Source: Tagaea sp. (lineage in GTDB: Bacteria; Pseudomonadota; Alphaproteobacteria; CACIAM-22H2). Taken from it: a stretch of DNA of 64,000 bases. The translations under genes were made by a program, and so were the position numbers. A model generated the notes under the pieces. That model saw only the letters and a program-made list of their open reading frames with translations, did not search any database and was not told the DNA's origin. The first letter of the stretch is position 1; each line of letters opens with the position of its first letter. This document shows positions 43,839 through 50,945 of this stretch, one piece after another. Location of the stretch: positions 145-64,144 of the forward strand of contig JBILXZ010000001.1 of the NCBI GenBank assembly GCA_044378015.1. Reading direction: 5' to 3'.

Positions 43839-44807
43839 TCACGACCCTTTCAGCATCTGCGCGAAAGCGAAAAAGAGCGGCAGCCCAACCACCAGATTGA
43901 ACGGAAAAGTGATCGCAAGCGACGCGGTCAGATAAAAGCCCGGATTGGCCTCGGGCAGCGCTATGCGCACGGCGGCCGGCGCTGCGATGTAGGAGGCGCT
44001 TGCCGCCAGCACGCCGAGGATCGTCGCCCCGCCGACCGACAAGCCGATCTCGTGGCCCACGAATACGCCGAGAATGCCGTGCAGAACCGGCATCGCGATC
44101 GCAAACGCGATGAGGAACGGACCGACCTGTTTGAAGTCGCCCAAGCGCCGTGCCGCGACAAGGCCCATATCGAGCAGGAACAGGCACAAAGCGCCCTGGA
44201 AAGGATCGGCGAAAAAGGGCGCGACCGATTTGTAGCCCGTGGGACCGGCCAGAAAGCCGATCGCAAGCCCGCCGACCAGCAGCACGACGCTCTTGCCCGC
44301 CAGCACTTCGGGCAGTGCTGCCCGCCAATCGCCGTCCGACGCCCCTTTGAGCTTGGCGAGCAGCAAGGCCACGACGATGGCCGGCACTTCCATGACCGCC
44401 AGCACGGCCGGCATGAAACCTTCGGCCGGCAGCCCCGCCGACTGGAGATAGGCCGTGGCGGCGATGAACGTGACGGCCGAGACCGAACCGTAATGCGCCG
44501 CGATCGCCGCCGCGTTCGACGCGTCGAACTTGCCGAACCGCGTGAGGATATGGAACGACCAGAGCGGGATCGCCGTGCCGAGCCCGAAGCCCGCGAGCAA
44601 TGCCAGTATCACCGTGCCGAACGGCGCCACCGACAACGCGACCCCGCCTTTGAGGCCGATCGCGAACAGAAGATAGATCGACAGCGCCGCGTAGATTTGG
44701 TCCGGAAACTTGAGGTCGCTGCGCACCAGATGGGCGACCGCCCCCAGCACGAAGGACAGCACCATCGGCGACAGCAGGTTGAGGCGAACCAGTTCGAGCG
44801 TCGTCAT
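43839..44807 (-). CDS. sbtA: sodium-dependent bicarbonate transporter SbtA-family permease (DUF897)
   Basis: 322 aa, 10-TM inverted-repeat layout with blocks LSIYLLFAIGLKGG / LFLLDMGLVAARRL typical of SbtA; paired with sbtB. Confidence 0.8.
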   Translation of the reverse strand: MTTLELVRLNLLSPMVLSFVLGAVAHLVRSDLKFPDQIYAALSIYLLFAIGLKGGVALSVAPFGTVILALLAGFGLGTAIPLWSFHILTRFGKFDASNAAAIAAHYGSVSAVTFIAATAYLQSAGLPAEGFMPAVLAVMEVPAIVVALLLAKLKGASDGDWRAALPEVLAGKSVVLLVGGLAIGFLAGPTGYKSVAPFFADPFQGALCLFLLDMGLVAARRLGDFKQVGPFLIAFAIAMPVLHGILGVFVGHEIGLSVGGATILGVLAASASYIAAPAAVRIALPEANPGFYLTASLAITFPFNLVVGLPLFFAFAQMLKGS

Positions 44808-44918
44808 CGGGCACCAATCGGAAAGCGCGAAATTACAGCAACGATACGCGGTATTTGCGGACAAGCTGGGCGCGATAATGGCTTGGCTTTCGGCATTCGG
44901 ATAGCCATATTCGCACGC

Positions 44919-46322
44919 ATGAAAATCATATTCGCTGCCATCGCGTTTGCCTTTGCCGCCTTCCCCGCCTTTGCCGCCGCAGCAGATGCGCCCAAACTGG
45001 CCGGCGATCTTATGGGTCTTGCCTGGGTCTTGCCGTTCGTCGCGATCCTGCTTGGCATTGCATTGGGACCGCTGCTGGCGGCGCATTTGTGGCACGCGCA
45101 TTACGGCAAATTCGCGGTTGCCTGCGCAGCCGCGTTTTTGGCGCCGTGCGCCGCGATATTCGGCGCCGACGTGGCACTCTACGAGTTTCTGCACACGATG
45201 CTGCTCGAATACATTCCGTTCATCGTGATGCTGTTTTCGCTTTACGTCGTGGCCTGCGGCGTGCGGTTGCGCGGCGATCTTGTCGGAACGCCGGCGCTCA
45301 ATACGGGCATGCTGGCCTTCGGCACCCTGATCGCGAGCGTGATGGGAACAACCGGTGCATGCATGCTGCTGATCCAGCCGATGCTTCGCGCGAACGCGTG
45401 GCGAAAAAAGAACGTGCATGTTTTCGTGTTCTTCATCTTCCTGGTCGGCAATGTCGGCGGCAGCCTGACCCCGCTGGGCGATCCGCCGCTTTTCATCGGC
45501 TTTCTGGAGGGTGTTGATTTCTTCTGGACGACGAAGGCGATGCTGGTCCCCATGCTGCTCGTCGCAGTGCCGCTGCTGGTCGCGTTCTACGCGCTCGACA
45601 GCTATCTCTTTCGCAGCGAAGGGGCCCCACCCGGTCCGAGCGGCGAAACCTTCGCGGTCGAAGGCAAAATCAATCTGCTTCTGCTGGCGGGCATCGTGGC
45701 GGCCGTGCTGCTGTCGGGCGTGTGGCGCCCGAATATGCCCGTCGAGTTCTACTACACGCCCGTCGCCCTCGAAAGCATCGTGCGCTCGGTTCTGCTGCTG
45801 GCCCTCGCCTGGGCCTCGCTCGCATTGACAGACAACGACAGCCGCATGGCGAACGGATTCAGCTGGGAGCCGATCGCGGAAGTCGCGAAGCTCTTCGTTG
45901 GCATTTTCGTGACGATCGTGCCCGTGCTTGCGATCATCCGCTCAGGCCAGGAGGGGGCGCTCGGCGGCCTGATCGCGCTGCTCAACAGCGACGGCCGACC
46001 CGACAACCTGATGTATTTCTGGATCACCGGAATCCTGTCGGGTTTCCTCGACAACGCCCCCACATATCTGCTGTTCTTCAATCTGGCGGGCGGCGATCCC
46101 GAAACATTGATGGGACCGCTCGCAACCACGTTGCTGGCGATCTCGTGCGGCTCGGTTTTCATGGGCGCGCTCACCTATATCGGCAACGCGCCCAATTTCA
46201 TGGTCAAGGCGGTGGCCGAAAAAGCCGGCATCAGGATGCCCAGTTTCTTCGGCTATATGCTGTGGTCGGCCGCGTTCCTGCTGCCGCTTTTTGCGCTCGT
46301 CACGCTGGTGTATTTTCGCTAG
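44919..46322 (+). CDS. NhaD/ArsB-superfamily ion transporter (putative Na+/H+ antiporter), paralog 1
   Basis: 467 aa; hydrophobic N-terminus MKIIFAAIAFAFAAFPAFA; 10-12 TM; GDPPLF motif; highly similar to the next gene. Confidence 0.65.
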   Translation: MKIIFAAIAFAFAAFPAFAAAADAPKLAGDLMGLAWVLPFVAILLGIALGPLLAAHLWHAHYGKFAVACAAAFLAPCAAIFGADVALYEFLHTMLLEYIPFIVMLFSLYVVACGVRLRGDLVGTPALNTGMLAFGTLIASVMGTTGACMLLIQPMLRANAWRKKNVHVFVFFIFLVGNVGGSLTPLGDPPLFIGFLEGVDFFWTTKAMLVPMLLVAVPLLVAFYALDSYLFRSEGAPPGPSGETFAVEGKINLLLLAGIVAAVLLSGVWRPNMPVEFYYTPVALESIVRSVLLLALAWASLALTDNDSRMANGFSWEPIAEVAKLFVGIFVTIVPVLAIIRSGQEGALGGLIALLNSDGRPDNLMYFWITGILSGFLDNAPTYLLFFNLAGGDPETLMGPLATTLLAISCGSVFMGALTYIGNAPNFMVKAVAEKAGIRMPSFFGYMLWSAAFLLPLFALVTLVYFR

Positions 46323-46352
46323 CTTCGCAAAAAACACTGCGGAGCCGGGCCC

Positions 46353-47759
46353 ATGCGCGTTGCTGGATTGGTCGTTTCGTTCCTTCTGATTGCCACCCCC
46401 GCTTTCGCCGCCGAGGGCCTCGACGGCTCGAAGCTCGGCATCGTCTGGGCCGTTCCGTTCGTTGGCATCCTCTTGTCGATCGCGATCCTGCCGCTCGCCG
46501 CGCCGAAGCTTTGGCACCACCATTATGGCAAGATCGCGCTCGGCTGGGCGCTCGCGTTTTTGCTGCCCTTCGCCGCGATCGCCGACCTCGGCACGGTCGT
46601 GGAGACGACCGCGCACGTGCTGCTGGGCGAGTACATTCCGTTCATCATCCTGATCGGCGCGCTGTTCACGGTCGCGGGCGGTGTGCTGTTGCGCGGCAAC
46701 ATCCACGGCAGTGCGGGCATGAACACGGGCCTGCTGGCCATCGGCACCGGCATCGCGAGCTTCACCGGCACCACGGGTGCCGCCATGCTGATGATCCGGC
46801 CGATGCTGCGCGCCAACGACAACCGGCGCCACAACGCGCATGTGTTCGTGTTTTTCATCTTCCTCGTCGCCAATGTCGGCGGCAGCCTCACCCCGCTCGG
46901 CGATCCGCCGCTGTTCCTGGGCTTCCTCAAGGGTGTCGATTTCTTCTGGCCCACGGTGCATCTGTTCTTGCCGATGCTGACGGTAACCGCGCTGCTGCTC
47001 GCCGCGTTCTATGTCGTCGACAGCTACTACTATCGTTTCGACACGCATCTCCCGCCCAAGCCCGATCCAACGCCGGACACGCGCCTGCGCCTGGAAGGCC
47101 GCCTCAATCTGCTGCTGTTGGGCGGCGTGGTCGGCGCCGTGCTGCTGTCGGGCGCTTGGAAATCGGGCGTCGAATTCAAGGTTTTGGGCGTGGCCTTGTC
47201 GCTCGAAGGGCTGGTGCGCGACGCGGCTCTGCTGGGCCTGGCGGCCGTGTCGGTCGCGGCCACCTCGAAGCAGGTGCGCGACGACAACGGATTCAGCTGG
47301 GGCCCGATCCTCGAAGTCGCCAAGCTGTTCTTCGGCATTTTCGTGACGATCGTGCCGGTCATCGCGATGCTGCGCGCGGGCACCGACGGCGCTTTCGCGG
47401 GCCTCGTCCATCTCGTCACGCGGCCCGACGGCACGCCCAACGTCGCGATGTATTTCTGGATGACCGGGCTCCTGTCGAGCTTCCTCGACAATGCGCCCAC
47501 CTATCTCGTGTTCTTCAATCTGGCGGGCGGGGACCCGGCGACGCTGATGGGCCCGCTCGCGGCCACGCTTGCGGCGATCTCGGCCGGTGCGGTGTTCATG
47601 GGTGCCAACTCGTATATCGGCAACGCCCCCAACTTCATGGTCAAGGCCGTCGCCGAAGAGGCGGGCGTGCGCATGCCGAGTTTCTTCGGCTACATGGGCT
47701 GGGCGTTCGTGTTCCTGATCCCGTGCTTCGCGCTGACGACCTGGCTGTTCTTCATCTGA
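46353..47759 (+). CDS. NhaD/ArsB-superfamily ion transporter, paralog 2 (tandem duplicate)
   Basis: 468 aa; colinear with the upstream paralog through LEYIPFI...GTTGA...LRAN...HVFVFFIFLV.NVGGSLTPLGDPPLF...DNAPTYL...GNAPNFMVKAVAE. Confidence 0.65.
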   Translation: MRVAGLVVSFLLIATPAFAAEGLDGSKLGIVWAVPFVGILLSIAILPLAAPKLWHHHYGKIALGWALAFLLPFAAIADLGTVVETTAHVLLGEYIPFIILIGALFTVAGGVLLRGNIHGSAGMNTGLLAIGTGIASFTGTTGAAMLMIRPMLRANDNRRHNAHVFVFFIFLVANVGGSLTPLGDPPLFLGFLKGVDFFWPTVHLFLPMLTVTALLLAAFYVVDSYYYRFDTHLPPKPDPTPDTRLRLEGRLNLLLLGGVVGAVLLSGAWKSGVEFKVLGVALSLEGLVRDAALLGLAAVSVAATSKQVRDDNGFSWGPILEVAKLFFGIFVTIVPVIAMLRAGTDGAFAGLVHLVTRPDGTPNVAMYFWMTGLLSSFLDNAPTYLVFFNLAGGDPATLMGPLAATLAAISAGAVFMGANSYIGNAPNFMVKAVAEEAGVRMPSFFGYMGWAFVFLIPCFALTTWLFFI

Positions 47760-48069
47760 TGCGCGCTTGCGCTGCCGCGCGCGCCACGGCCAGCAGCGCG
47801 TCGCGGTCGTCGGCGGCGGCACTCTTGCAGCGCCGCTCGGTGCGGCAAACCTCGCAGATATGCGTGAGGGTCCAGCCGCCGCGCGCCGGTTCGACCGCAA
47901 CCGGCCGCATCGCCCCGCCGCATTCGTCCGCCCGGTCGCCCGGATTGACATCGACATGGCGCGACCACAGGCATTCCGGGCAATGATTCGTATAGCCGTC
48001 GCCGGCGACTTGCGTGCCGCAATGGCCGCACACAAAATCCTCCATGCGGCGCTGGAAGCGTTTGCTCAT
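47752..48069 (-). CDS. RNHCP-domain zinc-ribbon protein
   Basis: FVCGHCGTQV...YTNHCPECLWSRHVD...CEVC matches the RNHCP signature; ATG overlaps the chrA stop (ATGA). Confidence 0.7.
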   Translation of the reverse strand: MSKRFQRRMEDFVCGHCGTQVAGDGYTNHCPECLWSRHVDVNPGDRADECGGAMRPVAVEPARGGWTLTHICEVCRTERRCKSAAADDRDALLAVARAAAQARIR

Positions 48070-49370
48070 AGGCCCAAAAGATAGCGCGCAAGGCCGAAGG
48101 CCGCCCCTGCGATCACCAACCAATGGATCGCAAGGCCGACGCGCACCAAGAGGCCGAGGGCTGCCGCAGCCACCGCGATCGCGACGAAATCCACACCGCT
48201 TGCAGGCCAGAACACAGCCTGGCCAAGAAACACGCCGAGATTGAGGATCACGCCGACGACCGCGGCCGTGATCGCGCCCAGGGCTGCCGAAGCCGCCTTG
48301 TTCTCGTGCAGGCCCTCGACATAGGGCGCGCCGGCGAGAATGAACAGAAAGCTCGGCAGGAACGTAACGTATGTGGCCAGCAACGCCGCGACGGTCGCAG
48401 CCGTCAGCGGGTCGGCCGCACCGGCATTCCAGCCCGCGAAGAAACCGACATATTGCAGCACCAGGATGAGCGGCCCGGGCGTCGTCTCGGCGAGCGCCAA
48501 ACCGTTCAGCATGTCGGCGGGCGTGAGCCAACCGTAGAGATTGACCGCCGCGTCCGCGACATAAGGGAGAACGGCATAGGCGCCGCCGAACGTGACGAAG
48601 GCCGCCTTCGTGAACAGGGCTGCCACGTCGGCAAAAGGCTTCGCGCCCATCGCGAACAGCACGCCCACGACCGGGATCGCCCACAGCACGGCGAACACGG
48701 CGCCCAAGCCGGCAAAACGCAGCATCGGCCTGGCCGGCAGCAGCACGTCGTCCGGCACGTTGCCGCCGGTGCTGCTCGCGTGCCCGCCGGTCGCAAAGGG
48801 CGAAGCCGTTGTCCCTCGCGCCGACGACACGCCCACGAGAGCCGCCGCTGCCACGACCCACGGGAACCCGACGCCGAAAAAATGGATGGCAACGAAGGCC
48901 GCGGCGGCAAGTGCTGCCGCTTGCCAAGTTTGCAGCGCCTTCTTGCCGATGCGCCAGACCGCATGCAGCACGACGGCAACGACGACCGGTTTGAGCCCGT
49001 CGAAAATCGCCCCGACGGCGCCCGTCTCGCCGTGCACGGCCGCAATGTAGGACAGCACCAGCATGCACAAGGCGCCCGGCAGCACGAACAAGGCGCCCGC
49101 CGCAACCCCGCCCCATGTGCCGTGCAGGCGCCAGCCGATATAGGTGGCAAGCTGCTGCGCTTCGGGGCCCGGCAGCAAAGTGGCGAACGAAAGCCCGCGC
49201 AGGAAACTGCGCTGGCCGATCCAACGCTGCTTGTCGACGAGATCGTGCTGCATCATCGCGATCTGCCCGGCGGGCCCGCCGAAGGACAGGCAGCCCAGCT
49301 TGAGCCAATAGGCGAGGGCGGTCCGGTAGCTCGGCCGGTCGCCGAAAGCGGGGGTGGAAGCGTCGGGCAT
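48066..49370 (-). CDS. chrA: chromate efflux transporter (long, two-domain ChrA)
   Basis: Duplicated CHR domains (LGCLSFGGPAGQIAMMQ and FVTFGGAYAVLPYV); AGGAGG SD 5 nt upstream of ATG 49370. Confidence 0.85.
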   Translation of the reverse strand: MPDASTPAFGDRPSYRTALAYWLKLGCLSFGGPAGQIAMMQHDLVDKQRWIGQRSFLRGLSFATLLPGPEAQQLATYIGWRLHGTWGGVAAGALFVLPGALCMLVLSYIAAVHGETGAVGAIFDGLKPVVVAVVLHAVWRIGKKALQTWQAAALAAAAFVAIHFFGVGFPWVVAAAALVGVSSARGTTASPFATGGHASSTGGNVPDDVLLPARPMLRFAGLGAVFAVLWAIPVVGVLFAMGAKPFADVAALFTKAAFVTFGGAYAVLPYVADAAVNLYGWLTPADMLNGLALAETTPGPLILVLQYVGFFAGWNAGAADPLTAATVAALLATYVTFLPSFLFILAGAPYVEGLHENKAASAALGAITAAVVGVILNLGVFLGQAVFWPASGVDFVAIAVAAAALGLLVRVGLAIHWLVIAGAAFGLARYLLGL

Positions 49371-49399
49371 TGTTCCTCCTTGAAAATGCGGGCGCAAGG

Positions 49400-50326
49400 C
49401 TAGCGCACCTCTTGCCCGCGCACACCCTTGGCGACGACCGGTTTGCCCATAGCGCGCCAGCCGACGATGCCCGTGTCGAGAAACGACGCATCGTAGCCTT
49501 GGGCGCGCAGGGCTGCCGCCGTGTCGCGGCTGAACGAAAAACCGTACACGCAATAGACGACGATTTTGCGTGCGCGCGGTAAGCCCGCTTTGGCGCCGTC
49601 CGGATCGGCCGGATCGAGGCGCAGCGCTTGCGGCAGCATGTCGGTTCCGGCCTCGAAGGCGGGCGCGCGCCGCGCATCGACGAAAACGCCGTCGAAACCG
49701 TCGAGCGCCTCGGCCGCAACGCCGTGCAAGGCGGGCCGTGCTACCTCGCCCCGCCACCGCCGCTCGGCCCCAGTCCAGTCGATCGTGGCCAGAAACGCAT
49801 CGACATAGCGCCCGGCTTCGGCGCCGTAGTCGAGATGGTAGGCGTGTTCGTACATGTCGAGCGCAAGCAACGGCGTTGCGCCCGCAAAACCCATCGCATG
49901 GTCGGCGCCCCATTGGATGGCCAAACGCCCGTCGCGATTCTCGCGCACCAGCACGACCCAGCCCGATCCGCCCGCCAACGCCTTCGCGCAGGCCGCAAAG
50001 CGCCTTTCCCAGATTTCGAACGCGCCGAAATCGCGCGCGATCGCCGCAGCGAATTCCGCGGAGGGCGGTTTCGACGGTGCGAGCGCTTCGAAATAGATTT
50101 CGTGAAGCACCATCGAGTTGTAGGCGGCGAGCTCCTCGCGCTTGAGGGCGTTCAACTCGAAAGCAGGAGCGGAAACGTCGAGCGCATCGAGCCGCCCGGC
50201 GATCGCGTTGAGGCGCTTCACCGCCCCGGCGTAGTTGTTGGCGTAGTGGCTCGCGACCAGCTTTTCGCTGAAACCGGGATAGGATTCGGGTTTAGCCGCC
50301 AAAGGCTTCAGATAACGCATGTCCAT
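49400..50326 (-). CDS. Fe/Mn-SOD-fold (ChrC-like) domain fused to a rhodanese (ChrE-like) domain
   Basis: N-terminal SOD-like fold (SHYANNYAGAV...LHEIYFE...WGADHAMGF...LALDMYEHAYHLDY) with partial metal-ligand set; C-terminal rhodanese active-site loop VVYCVYGFSFSRD. Confidence 0.75.
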   Translation of the reverse strand: MDMRYLKPLAAKPESYPGFSEKLVASHYANNYAGAVKRLNAIAGRLDALDVSAPAFELNALKREELAAYNSMVLHEIYFEALAPSKPPSAEFAAAIARDFGAFEIWERRFAACAKALAGGSGWVVLVRENRDGRLAIQWGADHAMGFAGATPLLALDMYEHAYHLDYGAEAGRYVDAFLATIDWTGAERRWRGEVARPALHGVAAEALDGFDGVFVDARRAPAFEAGTDMLPQALRLDPADPDGAKAGLPRARKIVVYCVYGFSFSRDTAAALRAQGYDASFLDTGIVGWRAMGKPVVAKGVRGQEVR

Positions 50327-50330
50327 CTCC

Positions 50331-50358
50331 TCTCAAGCAAAACCCCTTGAAGGGGTTC
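50331..50358 (-). terminator. intrinsic terminator downstream of greA
   Basis: AACCCCTT-g-AAGGGGTT hairpin followed on the minus strand by TTTTGCTTG. Confidence 0.5.
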
Positions 50359-50471
50359 GCTCAAAAGGCAGCGCTTGGACGAGCGGATCGTCTTGGAAAA
50401 TTCGGGGCGACTGCCGACGGCCCCGCGTGGGGGTCTTCATACGCGCGCGCGCGCGCGAACGCAAGTCGCAC

Positions 50472-50945
50472 TTACTTGAAGCGGACCTTCATGATCTCGT
50501 AGGCCTTGCTGCCGCGCGGCGTGGTCACTTCGACCGTGTCGCCGGCCTGCTTGTTGATAAGCGCGCGCGACAGAGGCGAGGTGATCGAAATGCGGCCCTT
50601 TTCGACGTCGGCCTCGTCGGCGCCGACGATCTGGTAGGTGGCTTCTTCGTTCGTGTCGACGTCGGCCAGCGTCACTTTGGCGCCGAACTTGATGTGTTTG
50701 CCCGACAGCGAGGCGACGTCGATGATCTCGCCGCGGCTCACCTTGTCCTCGAGCTCGCCGATGCGCCCCTCGATGAAGGACTGGCGTTCGCGCGCGGCAT
50801 GGTATTCGGCGTTTTCGGAAAGGTCGCCGTGGTCGCGGGCTTCGGCGATGGCGCGAATGACGGCCGGACGCTCGACAGTCTTGAGGTTCTTTAGTTCCGC
50901 TTCGAGGCGTTCGTAGCCCTCGCGCGTCATCGGAATCTTGTCCAT
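50472..50945 (-). CDS. greA: transcription elongation factor GreA
   Basis: 157 aa; N-terminal coiled coil with acidic tip ([13 protein letters not shown]), C-terminal FKBP-like domain. Confidence 0.95.

Follow-up and report, generated by a model that had tools for sequence, protein, structure and literature searches.

The window analysed here is a 64,000-nucleotide (nt) stretch of DNA from Tagaea sp., a genus of Rhodospirillaceae, and our subject is a chromate (chr) locus within it. Three co-oriented minus-strand genes are bounded by greA (50472-50945) on one side and by a convergent CitMHS_2 transporter gene (46353-47759) on the other. These are chrCE, whose sequence joins a ChrC-type Fe/Mn superoxide dismutase (SOD) to a ChrE-type rhodanese; chrA, which encodes a CHR-family chromate transporter; and a small gene with an RNHCP domain. 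Open reading frame (ORF) calls and domain matches agree in placing these three genes where a first-pass annotation, made from the letters of the DNA alone, had put them. That annotation missed a fourth element, a chrB-b RNA (Rfam RF03086) in the leader of chrCE, which is the only Rfam match in the whole window. We consider it probable that these elements form a single chromosomal operon of a Tagaea-like member of the Rhodospirillales, running from a promoter through the chrB-b RNA leader to chrCE, chrA and the RNHCP gene (Table 1). By itself, the locus is a commonplace representative of the chr family. Its most informative feature is the RNA, a known orphan motif, with its predicted platform for trapping the Shine-Dalgarno (SD) sequence.

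Table 1. Features of the chr locus, in window coordinates
Feature	Position	Strand	Details or basis
Putative promoter	50437..50465	-	CTTGCG, 17-nt spacer including (CG)8, GTATGA; between the greA stop (50472) and the RNA motif
chrB-b RNA (Rfam RF03086)	50368..50425	-	orphan riboswitch candidate; cmscan
Expression platform hairpin (predicted)	50327..50371	-	RNAfold and conservation in relatives
chrCE, fused ChrC-type Fe/Mn-SOD and ChrE-type rhodanese	49400..50320	-	longest ORF begins at 50326
SOD domain of chrCE	about 49751-50320	-	domain matches, alignments
Rhodanese domain of chrCE	about 49427-49711	-	domain matches, alignments
ChrCE ligand codons	H27 50246-50248; H75 50102-50104; D157 49856-49858; H161 49844-49846	-	
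chrA, long-form CHR chromate ion transporter, 434 amino acids (aa)	48066..49370	-	Pfam, TIGR00937
RNHCP-domain gene, two-zinc-site ribbon protein, 105 aa	47752..48069	-	PF12647

The genes are tightly packed. The longest ORF of chrCE (49400..50326, minus strand, 308 aa) has no interruption. The SD sequence GAGAGGAG runs right up to its first ATG, and because of this spacing the second ATG (50320) is probably the real start, which would give a protein of 306 aa; chrCE of the relatives begins at the equivalent GGAC(G)ATG. A gap of 29 nt separates chrCE from chrA, which has its own AAGGAGG ribosome-binding site. The RNHCP gene shares the four letters ATGA with chrA (its own ATG, the TGA of chrA), and at its other end it overlaps the convergent CitMHS_2 gene by 8 nt, stop to stop.

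ChrCE had been described in the first-pass annotation as a single 308-aa polypeptide with an SOD fold, a C-terminal rhodanese and an incomplete set of metal ligands. The architecture is borne out by the unbroken ORF and by two Pfam matches, Sod_Fe_C over aa 88-190 (1.1e-23) and Rhodanese over aa 206-292 (8.6e-8; 33.0 bits versus a cut-off of 22.2). Among the domain models that the annotation had named, Sod_Fe_C, Rhodanese, Chromate_transp and RNHCP all match their proteins, whereas Pfam gives no Sod_Fe_N call on ChrCE. The N-terminal helical domain is nevertheless present, because SODs from the PDB and full-length NCBIfam SOD models align to ChrCE from aa ~17 to 192. An AlphaFold2 model of ChrCE, built with a 65-sequence alignment, has a predicted local distance difference test score (pLDDT) of 90.8 and a predicted template modelling (TM) score (pTM) of 0.84. 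It shows the two-domain SOD fold, a helical hairpin followed by an alpha/beta domain. Compared with whole SOD chains of about 200 aa, the model gives target-normalised TM-scores of 0.82-0.90 at a root-mean-square deviation of about 2 Å, and its best fold matches are archaeal SODs.

The ligand claim, on the other hand, is contradicted by the alignments. H27, H75, D157 and H161 of ChrCE align with the metal ligands of Escherichia coli SodB (His26, His73, Asp156 and His160; reference sequence from an annotated record). All four are invariant in alignments of 8, 17 and 65 sequences, including E. coli SodB and, as the comparison that the annotation had proposed, ChrC of Cupriavidus metallidurans CH34. 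Only outer-sphere residues differ. The KHHQTY segment of SodB reads NNYAGA in ChrCE, such that His30 corresponds to Asn31 and Tyr34 to Ala35. In the alignment, the segment holding Gln69 of FeSOD is deleted, and His143 occupies the position of MnSOD Gln146. ChrCE thus lacks the usual outer-sphere set of Fe/Mn SODs (His30, Tyr34 and Gln69/Gln146). Archaeal SODs also have a histidine at the MnSOD Gln146 position.

These substitutions are a family trait. The signature SH[YH]xNNYxGAV is common to ChrCE, to ChrC of the CH34 plasmid pMOL28 and to a ChrC of the TnOtChr type. ChrCE carries the other marks of the ChrC clade as well, namely the motif NSxxLHE[LIV][YH]F and an adjacent chrA. In 2002, Juhnke et al. 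reportedly found SOD activity for CH34 ChrC. The purified TnOtChr ChrC is a tetrameric Fe-SOD that lowers chromate-induced reactive oxygen species (PMC4779226). Because ChrC with the same substitutions has measured activity, the outer-sphere residues are not decisive for activity.

In the C-terminal part, the active-site cysteine that the annotation had pointed out is C259 in VVYCVYGFSFSRD (codon 49550-49552), and it is invariant in 65 aligned homologs. The top NCBIfam rhodanese model for ChrCE is rhodan_ChrE (NF033833, E=1.2e-17), and fold and position are those of ChrE, a rhodanese with an active-site cysteine loop directly after the ChrC part. In pairwise comparisons, the SOD part is 57% identical to pMOL28 (CH34) ChrC and the rhodanese part 38% identical to pMOL28 ChrE. 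In a tblastn search against plasmids, 94% of the length of ChrCE aligned collinearly with chrC and chrE, which are neighbours on pMOL28.

How unusual is the fusion? A search of 5.8 billion proteins with ChrCE returned 6611 matches. The best 120, from Alpha-, Beta- and Gammaproteobacteria, are all about 300 aa long, and both Pfam domains are present in 119 of them. Most are labelled ‘Fe-Mn family superoxide dismutase’; the fused gene is already in public databases, annotated, and our literature search found no paper on a ChrC-ChrE fusion. A fused chrCE also occurs in the company of chrB, chrA and chrF on RefSeq plasmids, namely those of Pseudomonas sp. JS3066, Acidovorax sp. T1 and Rhizobium bangladeshense. 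We also fetched 80 metagenome chrCE loci with the family alignment, mostly on short contigs, and about half of them show chrA, chrB or chrF. The fused ORF is unbroken in 78 of these loci, and in the other two an in-frame stop falls in the linker. Taken together, these comparisons indicate that the fusion is the common form of the chrC/chrE pair and is not peculiar to the window. The joining of the two functions thus stands from the first-pass annotation, and its singularity does not, as the best 120 relatives are all fused. We reject the reading of chrCE as two genes separated by a frameshift: the ORF is unbroken, and there are thousands of homologs that match it in length and architecture.

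The two interrupted loci (L153, 2240-3067, and L104) have an ATG a few codons after the linker stop and are natural split forms. L153 contains the sample's closest relative of CH34 ChrC (74.6%), and the next nearest ones (73%) are fused. The Cupriavidus pMOL28 chrC/chrE pair looks like a fission product of a fused gene. One alphaproteobacterial contig (L176/L177, 1173-7618) has two SOD-rhodanese fusions in a single operon: chrA-chrB is divergent from a YjiS-like gene, chrCE, chrF, a second fused chrCE paralog (345 aa) and an MFS gene, and a chrB-b-like sequence lies further downstream, at about 8355.

ChrA is a long-form CHR transporter, as had been claimed, lying directly downstream of the fused gene. 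It has two Pfam Chromate_transp domains (1.1e-70) and scores 217.9 bits with TIGR00937, ‘chromate efflux transporter’, versus a cut-off of 171.7. It is 50% identical to the Rhizobium-plasmid ChrA whose gene adjoins chrB.

The setting of the operon is that of a core chromosome. GreA and CarB of the window are 94% and 90% identical to their counterparts in a Tagaea sp. metagenome-assembled genome (MAG), and the order carB-greA-[chrB-b]-chrCE-(chrF)-chrA-RNHCP-CitMHS_2 is kept in at least eight relatives, with ChrCE 56-76% identical. The optional chrF is present in three of these (L084, L171 and L037) and absent from the window and the others. This kept gene order indicates that the chr module is chromosomal and has been inherited vertically within the Tagaea-like clade. 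The GC content of the operon matches the remainder of the window, and there are no mobile-element genes close to it. In one Tagaea sp. MAG (L006, 3186-5312 of contig JAYRYC010000005.1), greA is followed after 26 nt by chrA-RNHCP, without chrCE and without the chrB-b RNA; here the chrA-RNHCP pair seems to have outlasted loss of the SOD-rhodanese gene and the leader. On its other side the operon is flanked by tandem CitMHS_2 paralogs on the plus strand (about 44.9-46.3 kb and 46353-47759, within 43839-47759) and by a minus-strand gene of the Sbt_1 bicarbonate-transporter family (about 43.8-44.8 kb), a neighbourhood that is preserved in the relatives.

The chrB-b RNA matches its model at 52.6 bits versus a gathering threshold of 36.5 (cmscan, E=4e-9 to 6e-8), with model positions 1-49 fully matched. 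It consists of a P1 stem (CGGGGC...GCCCCG) with a GGCAG loop, a P2 stem (AGACGA...TCGTC) and the conserved tail CAAGCGCUGCC. The full-length match above gathering and the position in the 5' leader of a chromate-resistance gene are those of a genuine chrB-b RNA. Between the end of the motif and the chrCE start lie 47 nt, and every syntenic relative has the motif in this position upstream of chrCE. In their original description, chrB-a and chrB-b are related 5' untranslated-region motifs of alphaproteobacterial chromate-resistance genes and were proposed as possible chromate sensors (Weinberg et al., 2017; PMC5737381).

Upstream of the motif, a promoter-like block, GCTTGCG...GCGCGTATA, is kept at equal distance from the RNA in three relatives (L085, L084 and L037). 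A generic sigma-70 scan calls no promoter at the chr leader, and the CTTGCG-N17-GTATGA promoter is for this reason a putative one, drawn by eye and from conservation. Most of its 17-nt spacer is a (CG)8 run (50443-50458), which is less regular in the GC-rich spacer of the relatives; slippage in this run would alter the spacer length.

Downstream of the motif, the leader is predicted to fold into a hairpin that includes the ribosome-binding site. The strand CCUUUUGAG (50360-50368), directly 3' of the conserved tail ...CUG, pairs with the SD region CUUGAGAGG (within 50327-50337), and GAACCCC/GGGGUU forms an inner stem. The RNAfold energy of the window leader is -25.0 kcal/mol, and 8/8 other leaders (seven distinct) of syntenic relatives show this two-tier hairpin as well, at -24.9 to -28.6 kcal/mol. 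Among these relatives the outer helix, CCUUYYGG:CCGGGAGG, is conserved, and the inner stem varies in sequence with compensatory changes. An invariant GGAC sits just ahead of the start codon, and the 3' arm of P2 contains its complement.

A second, overlapping interaction can be drawn between the P1 loop and the 3' tail. This pseudoknot, of the form N-CAG-N : N-CUG-N (50367-50415, minus strand, in the window), was followed through 11 distinct instances (the window, L003, L037, L116, L120, L135, L145, L150, L161, L169 and L176). The loop+1:tail-1 position is paired in all 11, with six pair types, and the loop-1:tail+1 position in 10 of the 11, with GC or AU. In the clade of the window, the pseudoknot reads GGCAGU:(G/A)CUGCC, and the anti-SD strand begins with its last two C's (50367-50368). 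In the window itself the loop GGCAG occupies 50411-50415 and the tail CUGCC 50367-50371. These features suggest a translational ON switch, in which the folded aptamer would compete with the SD trap.

In other hosts the leader is arranged differently. About 230 nt lie between the chrB-b RNA and chrCE on a Variovorax paradoxus plasmid (L003, 4719-5000 of NZ_CP138516.1) and in L111, and this stretch encodes a short peptide that resembles the ChrA N terminus; it may be what is left of a chrA, or else a leader ORF. In L120 (4-3268), a soil contig of 4.1 kb, nine tRNA-model Rfam matches lie on both sides of a chrB-b-chrCE unit.

The RNA is also the operon's candidate regulator in place of an absent ChrB. 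Queries with ChrB, ChrF and ChrI of pMOL28 and with ChrB and ChrF of the Rhizobium plasmid gave zero tblastn matches in the 64 kb at E<=0.01; within this window there is no ChrB or ChrF homolog, and chrB may lie elsewhere in the genome. The first-pass statement that no chrB regulator is present was therefore right about the protein, but it passed over the chrB-b RNA as a candidate regulator. We compared the two regulators across the 64 metagenome chrCE loci with at least 250 nt of upstream sequence, a sample ranked by similarity to the window ChrCE. Full-length chrB was scored as a match to the N-terminal half of ChrB, and the motif was found with a regular-expression descriptor. Rfam placed nine motif loci over gathering; four further loci scored 30.8-36.3 bits, below gathering, each being the sole match in its locus and in the expected place. 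Twenty-four loci had chrB only, 12 the motif only, 28 neither and none both. The motif thus occurs in 0/24 loci with chrB versus 12/40 without (Fisher p=0.002), or in 0/24 versus 8/40 when only Rfam-confirmed motifs are counted (p=0.02). A separate Rfam scan of 15 chrB-positive loci found the motif in none. In most of the motif-bearing loci, chrCE is the sole chr gene downstream. In this sample, then, the chrB-b RNA and ChrB behave as alternative regulators. Three elements are added here to the published motif: the SD-sequestering platform, the covariation of the pseudoknot (which the published consensus may already show) and the exclusion with chrB.

The third gene of the operon encodes a strongly constrained small protein, to judge from its alignment. 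It matches PF12647 over its full length (1.3e-27; 96 bits versus a gathering cut-off of 24), and its GYTNHCPEC motif fits (R/T)NHCP. Invariant residues are C14, C17, C30, C33, C50, C72 and C75, together with H29, H38, D40, D45 and R46. The family occupies at least 591 loci in species-representative genomes, with hosts that include Patescibacteria, Poribacteria, Chloroflexota, Frankia, Bdellovibrionota and many alphaproteobacteria, and identity is 50-60% between distant phyla, small-genome Patescibacteria included. The structure model (pLDDT 83) shows an N-terminal zinc-ribbon-like region, a three-stranded sheet and a C-terminal helix. Neither its fold nor its sequence has a significant match in the PDB: the best fold match is RNA polymerase I subunit RPA12 (E=0.05, TM 0.29) and the best sequence match is the Sgf11 zinc finger (E=0.005), both insignificant. 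There was no match in PHROG, and our literature search found no paper on RNHCP.

The coupling of this gene to chrA, which the annotation had noted from the ATGA overlap, is real within the Tagaea-like Rhodospirillales clade as far as the genomes compared here go: the 4-nt overlap is kept in six further relatives, down to 56% ChrCE identity. It appears to be confined to that clade, and for this reason the link is not general to either family. We found chrA near RNHCP in only 2/80 of the best RNHCP loci (of at least 591), both in Tagaea, and RNHCP in 0/80 chrCE loci outside the clade; a general RNHCP-chrA association is rejected on these counts. The best 80 RNHCP loci have no conserved neighbour, the largest neighbour cluster being pyruvate kinase in 11/80 loci from one gut alphaproteobacterial group. 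An ancestral greA-RNHCP adjacency, with the chr genes as an insertion, was considered as well and was not found outside Tagaea. In 3/80 RNHCP loci, all from candidate-phyla-radiation bacteria (L011, L015 and L027; Saccharibacteria/Parcubacteria), an ordinary Fe/Mn SOD gene lies about 2.4-3.1 kb upstream of RNHCP, which may be chance.

Taken together, these observations lead us to read the locus, with good though not full confidence, as a chromosomal chromate operon that combines export by ChrA, the two-domain enzyme ChrCE and control by the chrB-b RNA. ChrA, by orthology, would be a CHR-family exporter that expels chromate at the expense of the proton motive force. ChrCE would act in the cytoplasm, where its ChrC part, by analogy with TnOtChr ChrC, would clear superoxide arising as Cr(VI) is reduced in the cell, and the catalytic cysteine of its ChrE-type part presumably acts in thiol, persulfide or Cr-thiolate chemistry. 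Expression of chrCE is most likely governed by the chrB-b RNA and not by the ChrB protein. In the ligand-free leader, the long hairpin would hide the SD sequence. When the aptamer folds, P2 and the loop-tail pseudoknot would form, and because the pseudoknot shares two C's with the anti-SD strand, their formation could pull the hairpin open and allow translation. In the Tagaea-like clade, the RNHCP protein would be co-translated with ChrA.

Several points weigh against this interpretation. ChrCE scores 63.9 bits with NF033833, under the equivalog cut-off of 120. In the published account, chrB RNAs bound neither chromate nor related compounds in vitro (PMC5737381), and because of this the signal is possibly not chromate itself. 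The switch model is built on thermodynamic folds and on covariation in about eight related sequences, and the exclusion counts use short contigs, phylogenetically related loci and motif calls made in part by regular expression. The link between RNHCP and chrA may be no more than an accident of this clade. Finally, the operon sits at a conserved core-chromosome site and not in a metal-resistance island, and a physiological role in oxyanion handling or oxidative stress is accordingly conceivable.

This last point is the basis of the broadest alternative, in which the module is a housekeeping operon for oxyanions, sulfur or oxidative stress and not primarily a chromate determinant: the CHR transporter would move sulfate or another oxyanion, the rhodanese would traffic sulfur and the RNA would sense a cellular metabolite. 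Besides the in vitro binding result, it draws on the chromosomal position between greA/carAB and CitMHS_2, which is conserved in relatives found in metagenomes of activated sludge and other environments, on the lack of chrB and of nearby mobile-element genes, on the unremarkable GC content and on the many chrB-b-controlled chrCE genes that stand alone, without chrA. We nevertheless hold it to be unlikely, given that the nearest characterised relatives of all three characterised components belong to experimentally validated chromate determinants (pMOL28 and TnOtChr), that the same fused gene and RNA motif are found elsewhere with chrA and chrF, and that ChrA exceeds the cut-off of the chromate efflux model. 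A narrower alternative, in line with the ligand claim of the annotation, would make the SOD domain a degenerate, non-catalytic scaffold for the rhodanese. The missing Sod_Fe_N call, the replacement of His30 and Tyr34 by Asn and Ala and the deleted Gln69 region all fit such a scaffold. It has very little to recommend it once the four invariant ligands are considered, together with the same outer-sphere signature in the CH34 and TnOtChr-type ChrC proteins, a family with measured Fe-SOD activity (PMC4779226). His143 at the MnSOD Gln146 position and the archaeal SODs among the best fold matches point the same way.

The hairpin and the RNHCP gene also admit other explanations. A terminator scan flags 50342-50369 with a TTTTGCTT tail, and in the window the inner stem GAACCCC/GGGGUU is followed by UUUUGCUU, as would suit an intrinsic terminator that acts by attenuation rather than a translational SD trap. 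However, the region holds 5 terminator-like sites versus 4.1 +/- 2.3 in shuffled sequence, and in the relatives the inner stem has no U-run (e.g., GCGGAUUCCAACCGG and GGGCGUUUCGCAAACGG); conservation lies instead in the outer helix, where CCUUYYGG pairs with the SD sequence. Because the U-run of the window is missing in the relatives, we regard a terminator as distinctly the less likely function, and the SD trap remains our preferred reading of the hairpin. As for RNHCP, it might be a functional ChrA accessory (e.g., a zinc-ribbon regulator, an assembly factor or a Cr-binding protein) instead of a passenger. The overlap with chrA persists in the window and six relatives, the pair is still adjacent in the Tagaea sp. 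locus that lacks chrCE and the RNA, and other alphaproteobacteria have no RNHCP at this chromosomal site. Against this stand the counts of 2/80 and 0/80, the absence of any functional hint from structural or sequence relatives, and the 50-60% identity across phyla without a conserved neighbour, which suggests a general cellular role. We therefore doubt an accessory role; the coupling to chrA is the sole clue to what RNHCP does and is equally compatible with hitch-hiking. The more ambitious proposal, that RNHCP has been recruited as a ChrA partner within a chrB-b regulon in which the RNA replaces ChrB and senses a chromate-derived or chromate-induced intracellular ligand, is a speculation to which we give little credence. 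If it were true, it would provide the first functional handle on both the RNHCP domain and the orphan riboswitch.

The chromate-operon reading has consequences beyond this locus. The widespread fusion provides ‘Rosetta-stone’ evidence for joint action of ChrE and the Fe-SOD ChrC, and it suggests that the textbook pMOL28 arrangement is a split form and the exception. The alternation of RNA and ChrB sharpens the sensor hypothesis and narrows the set of genes for a ligand search, and the SD trap with its overlapping pseudoknot offers a concrete, mutable model for the orphan chrB-b riboswitch. The clade-specific coupling to chrA is one of few contextual clues to RNHCP, a protein conserved from Patescibacteria to Frankia.

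The closest characterised system is the chr determinant of C. metallidurans CH34 plasmid pMOL28 (chrI-chrB-chrA-chrC-chrE-chrF), which has the same ChrA, ChrC and ChrE functions as the window. There, chrC (197 aa) and chrE (113 aa) are two genes that differ in reading frame and have 17 nt between them, and it is the inter-domain linker that is interrupted. The pMOL28 system is plasmid-borne, includes chrB, chrF and chrI and has no chrB-b RNA at gathering score, whereas the window lacks chrB, chrF and chrI and has RNHCP instead. Closer in gene structure are the chrB-chrA-chrCE-chrF operons of the Pseudomonas sp. JS3066 IncP plasmid, Acidovorax sp. T1 p1-T1 and R. bangladeshense p2, which encode the same ~300-aa Sod_Fe_C plus Rhodanese protein (43-49% identity) next to chrA. 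These differ in having ChrB and ChrF, in being plasmid- or transposon-borne and in lacking RNHCP; the chrB-b motif was not found in the one plasmid chrCE locus scanned (L002). The TnOtChr chrBACF operon of Ochrobactrum tritici 5bvl1 has a ChrC of the same clade as the SOD part of the window protein (PMC4779226), but this ChrC is about 22 kDa and unfused, with no rhodanese, and the operon is transposon-borne and regulated by ChrB (PMC3817168). The RNHCP family (PF12647) is normally stand-alone across many phyla, and its translational coupling to chrA is seen only in the clade of the window. With the RF03086 chrB-b motifs, the window agrees in kind: the full model is matched, in the 5' leader of an alphaproteobacterial chromate-related gene.

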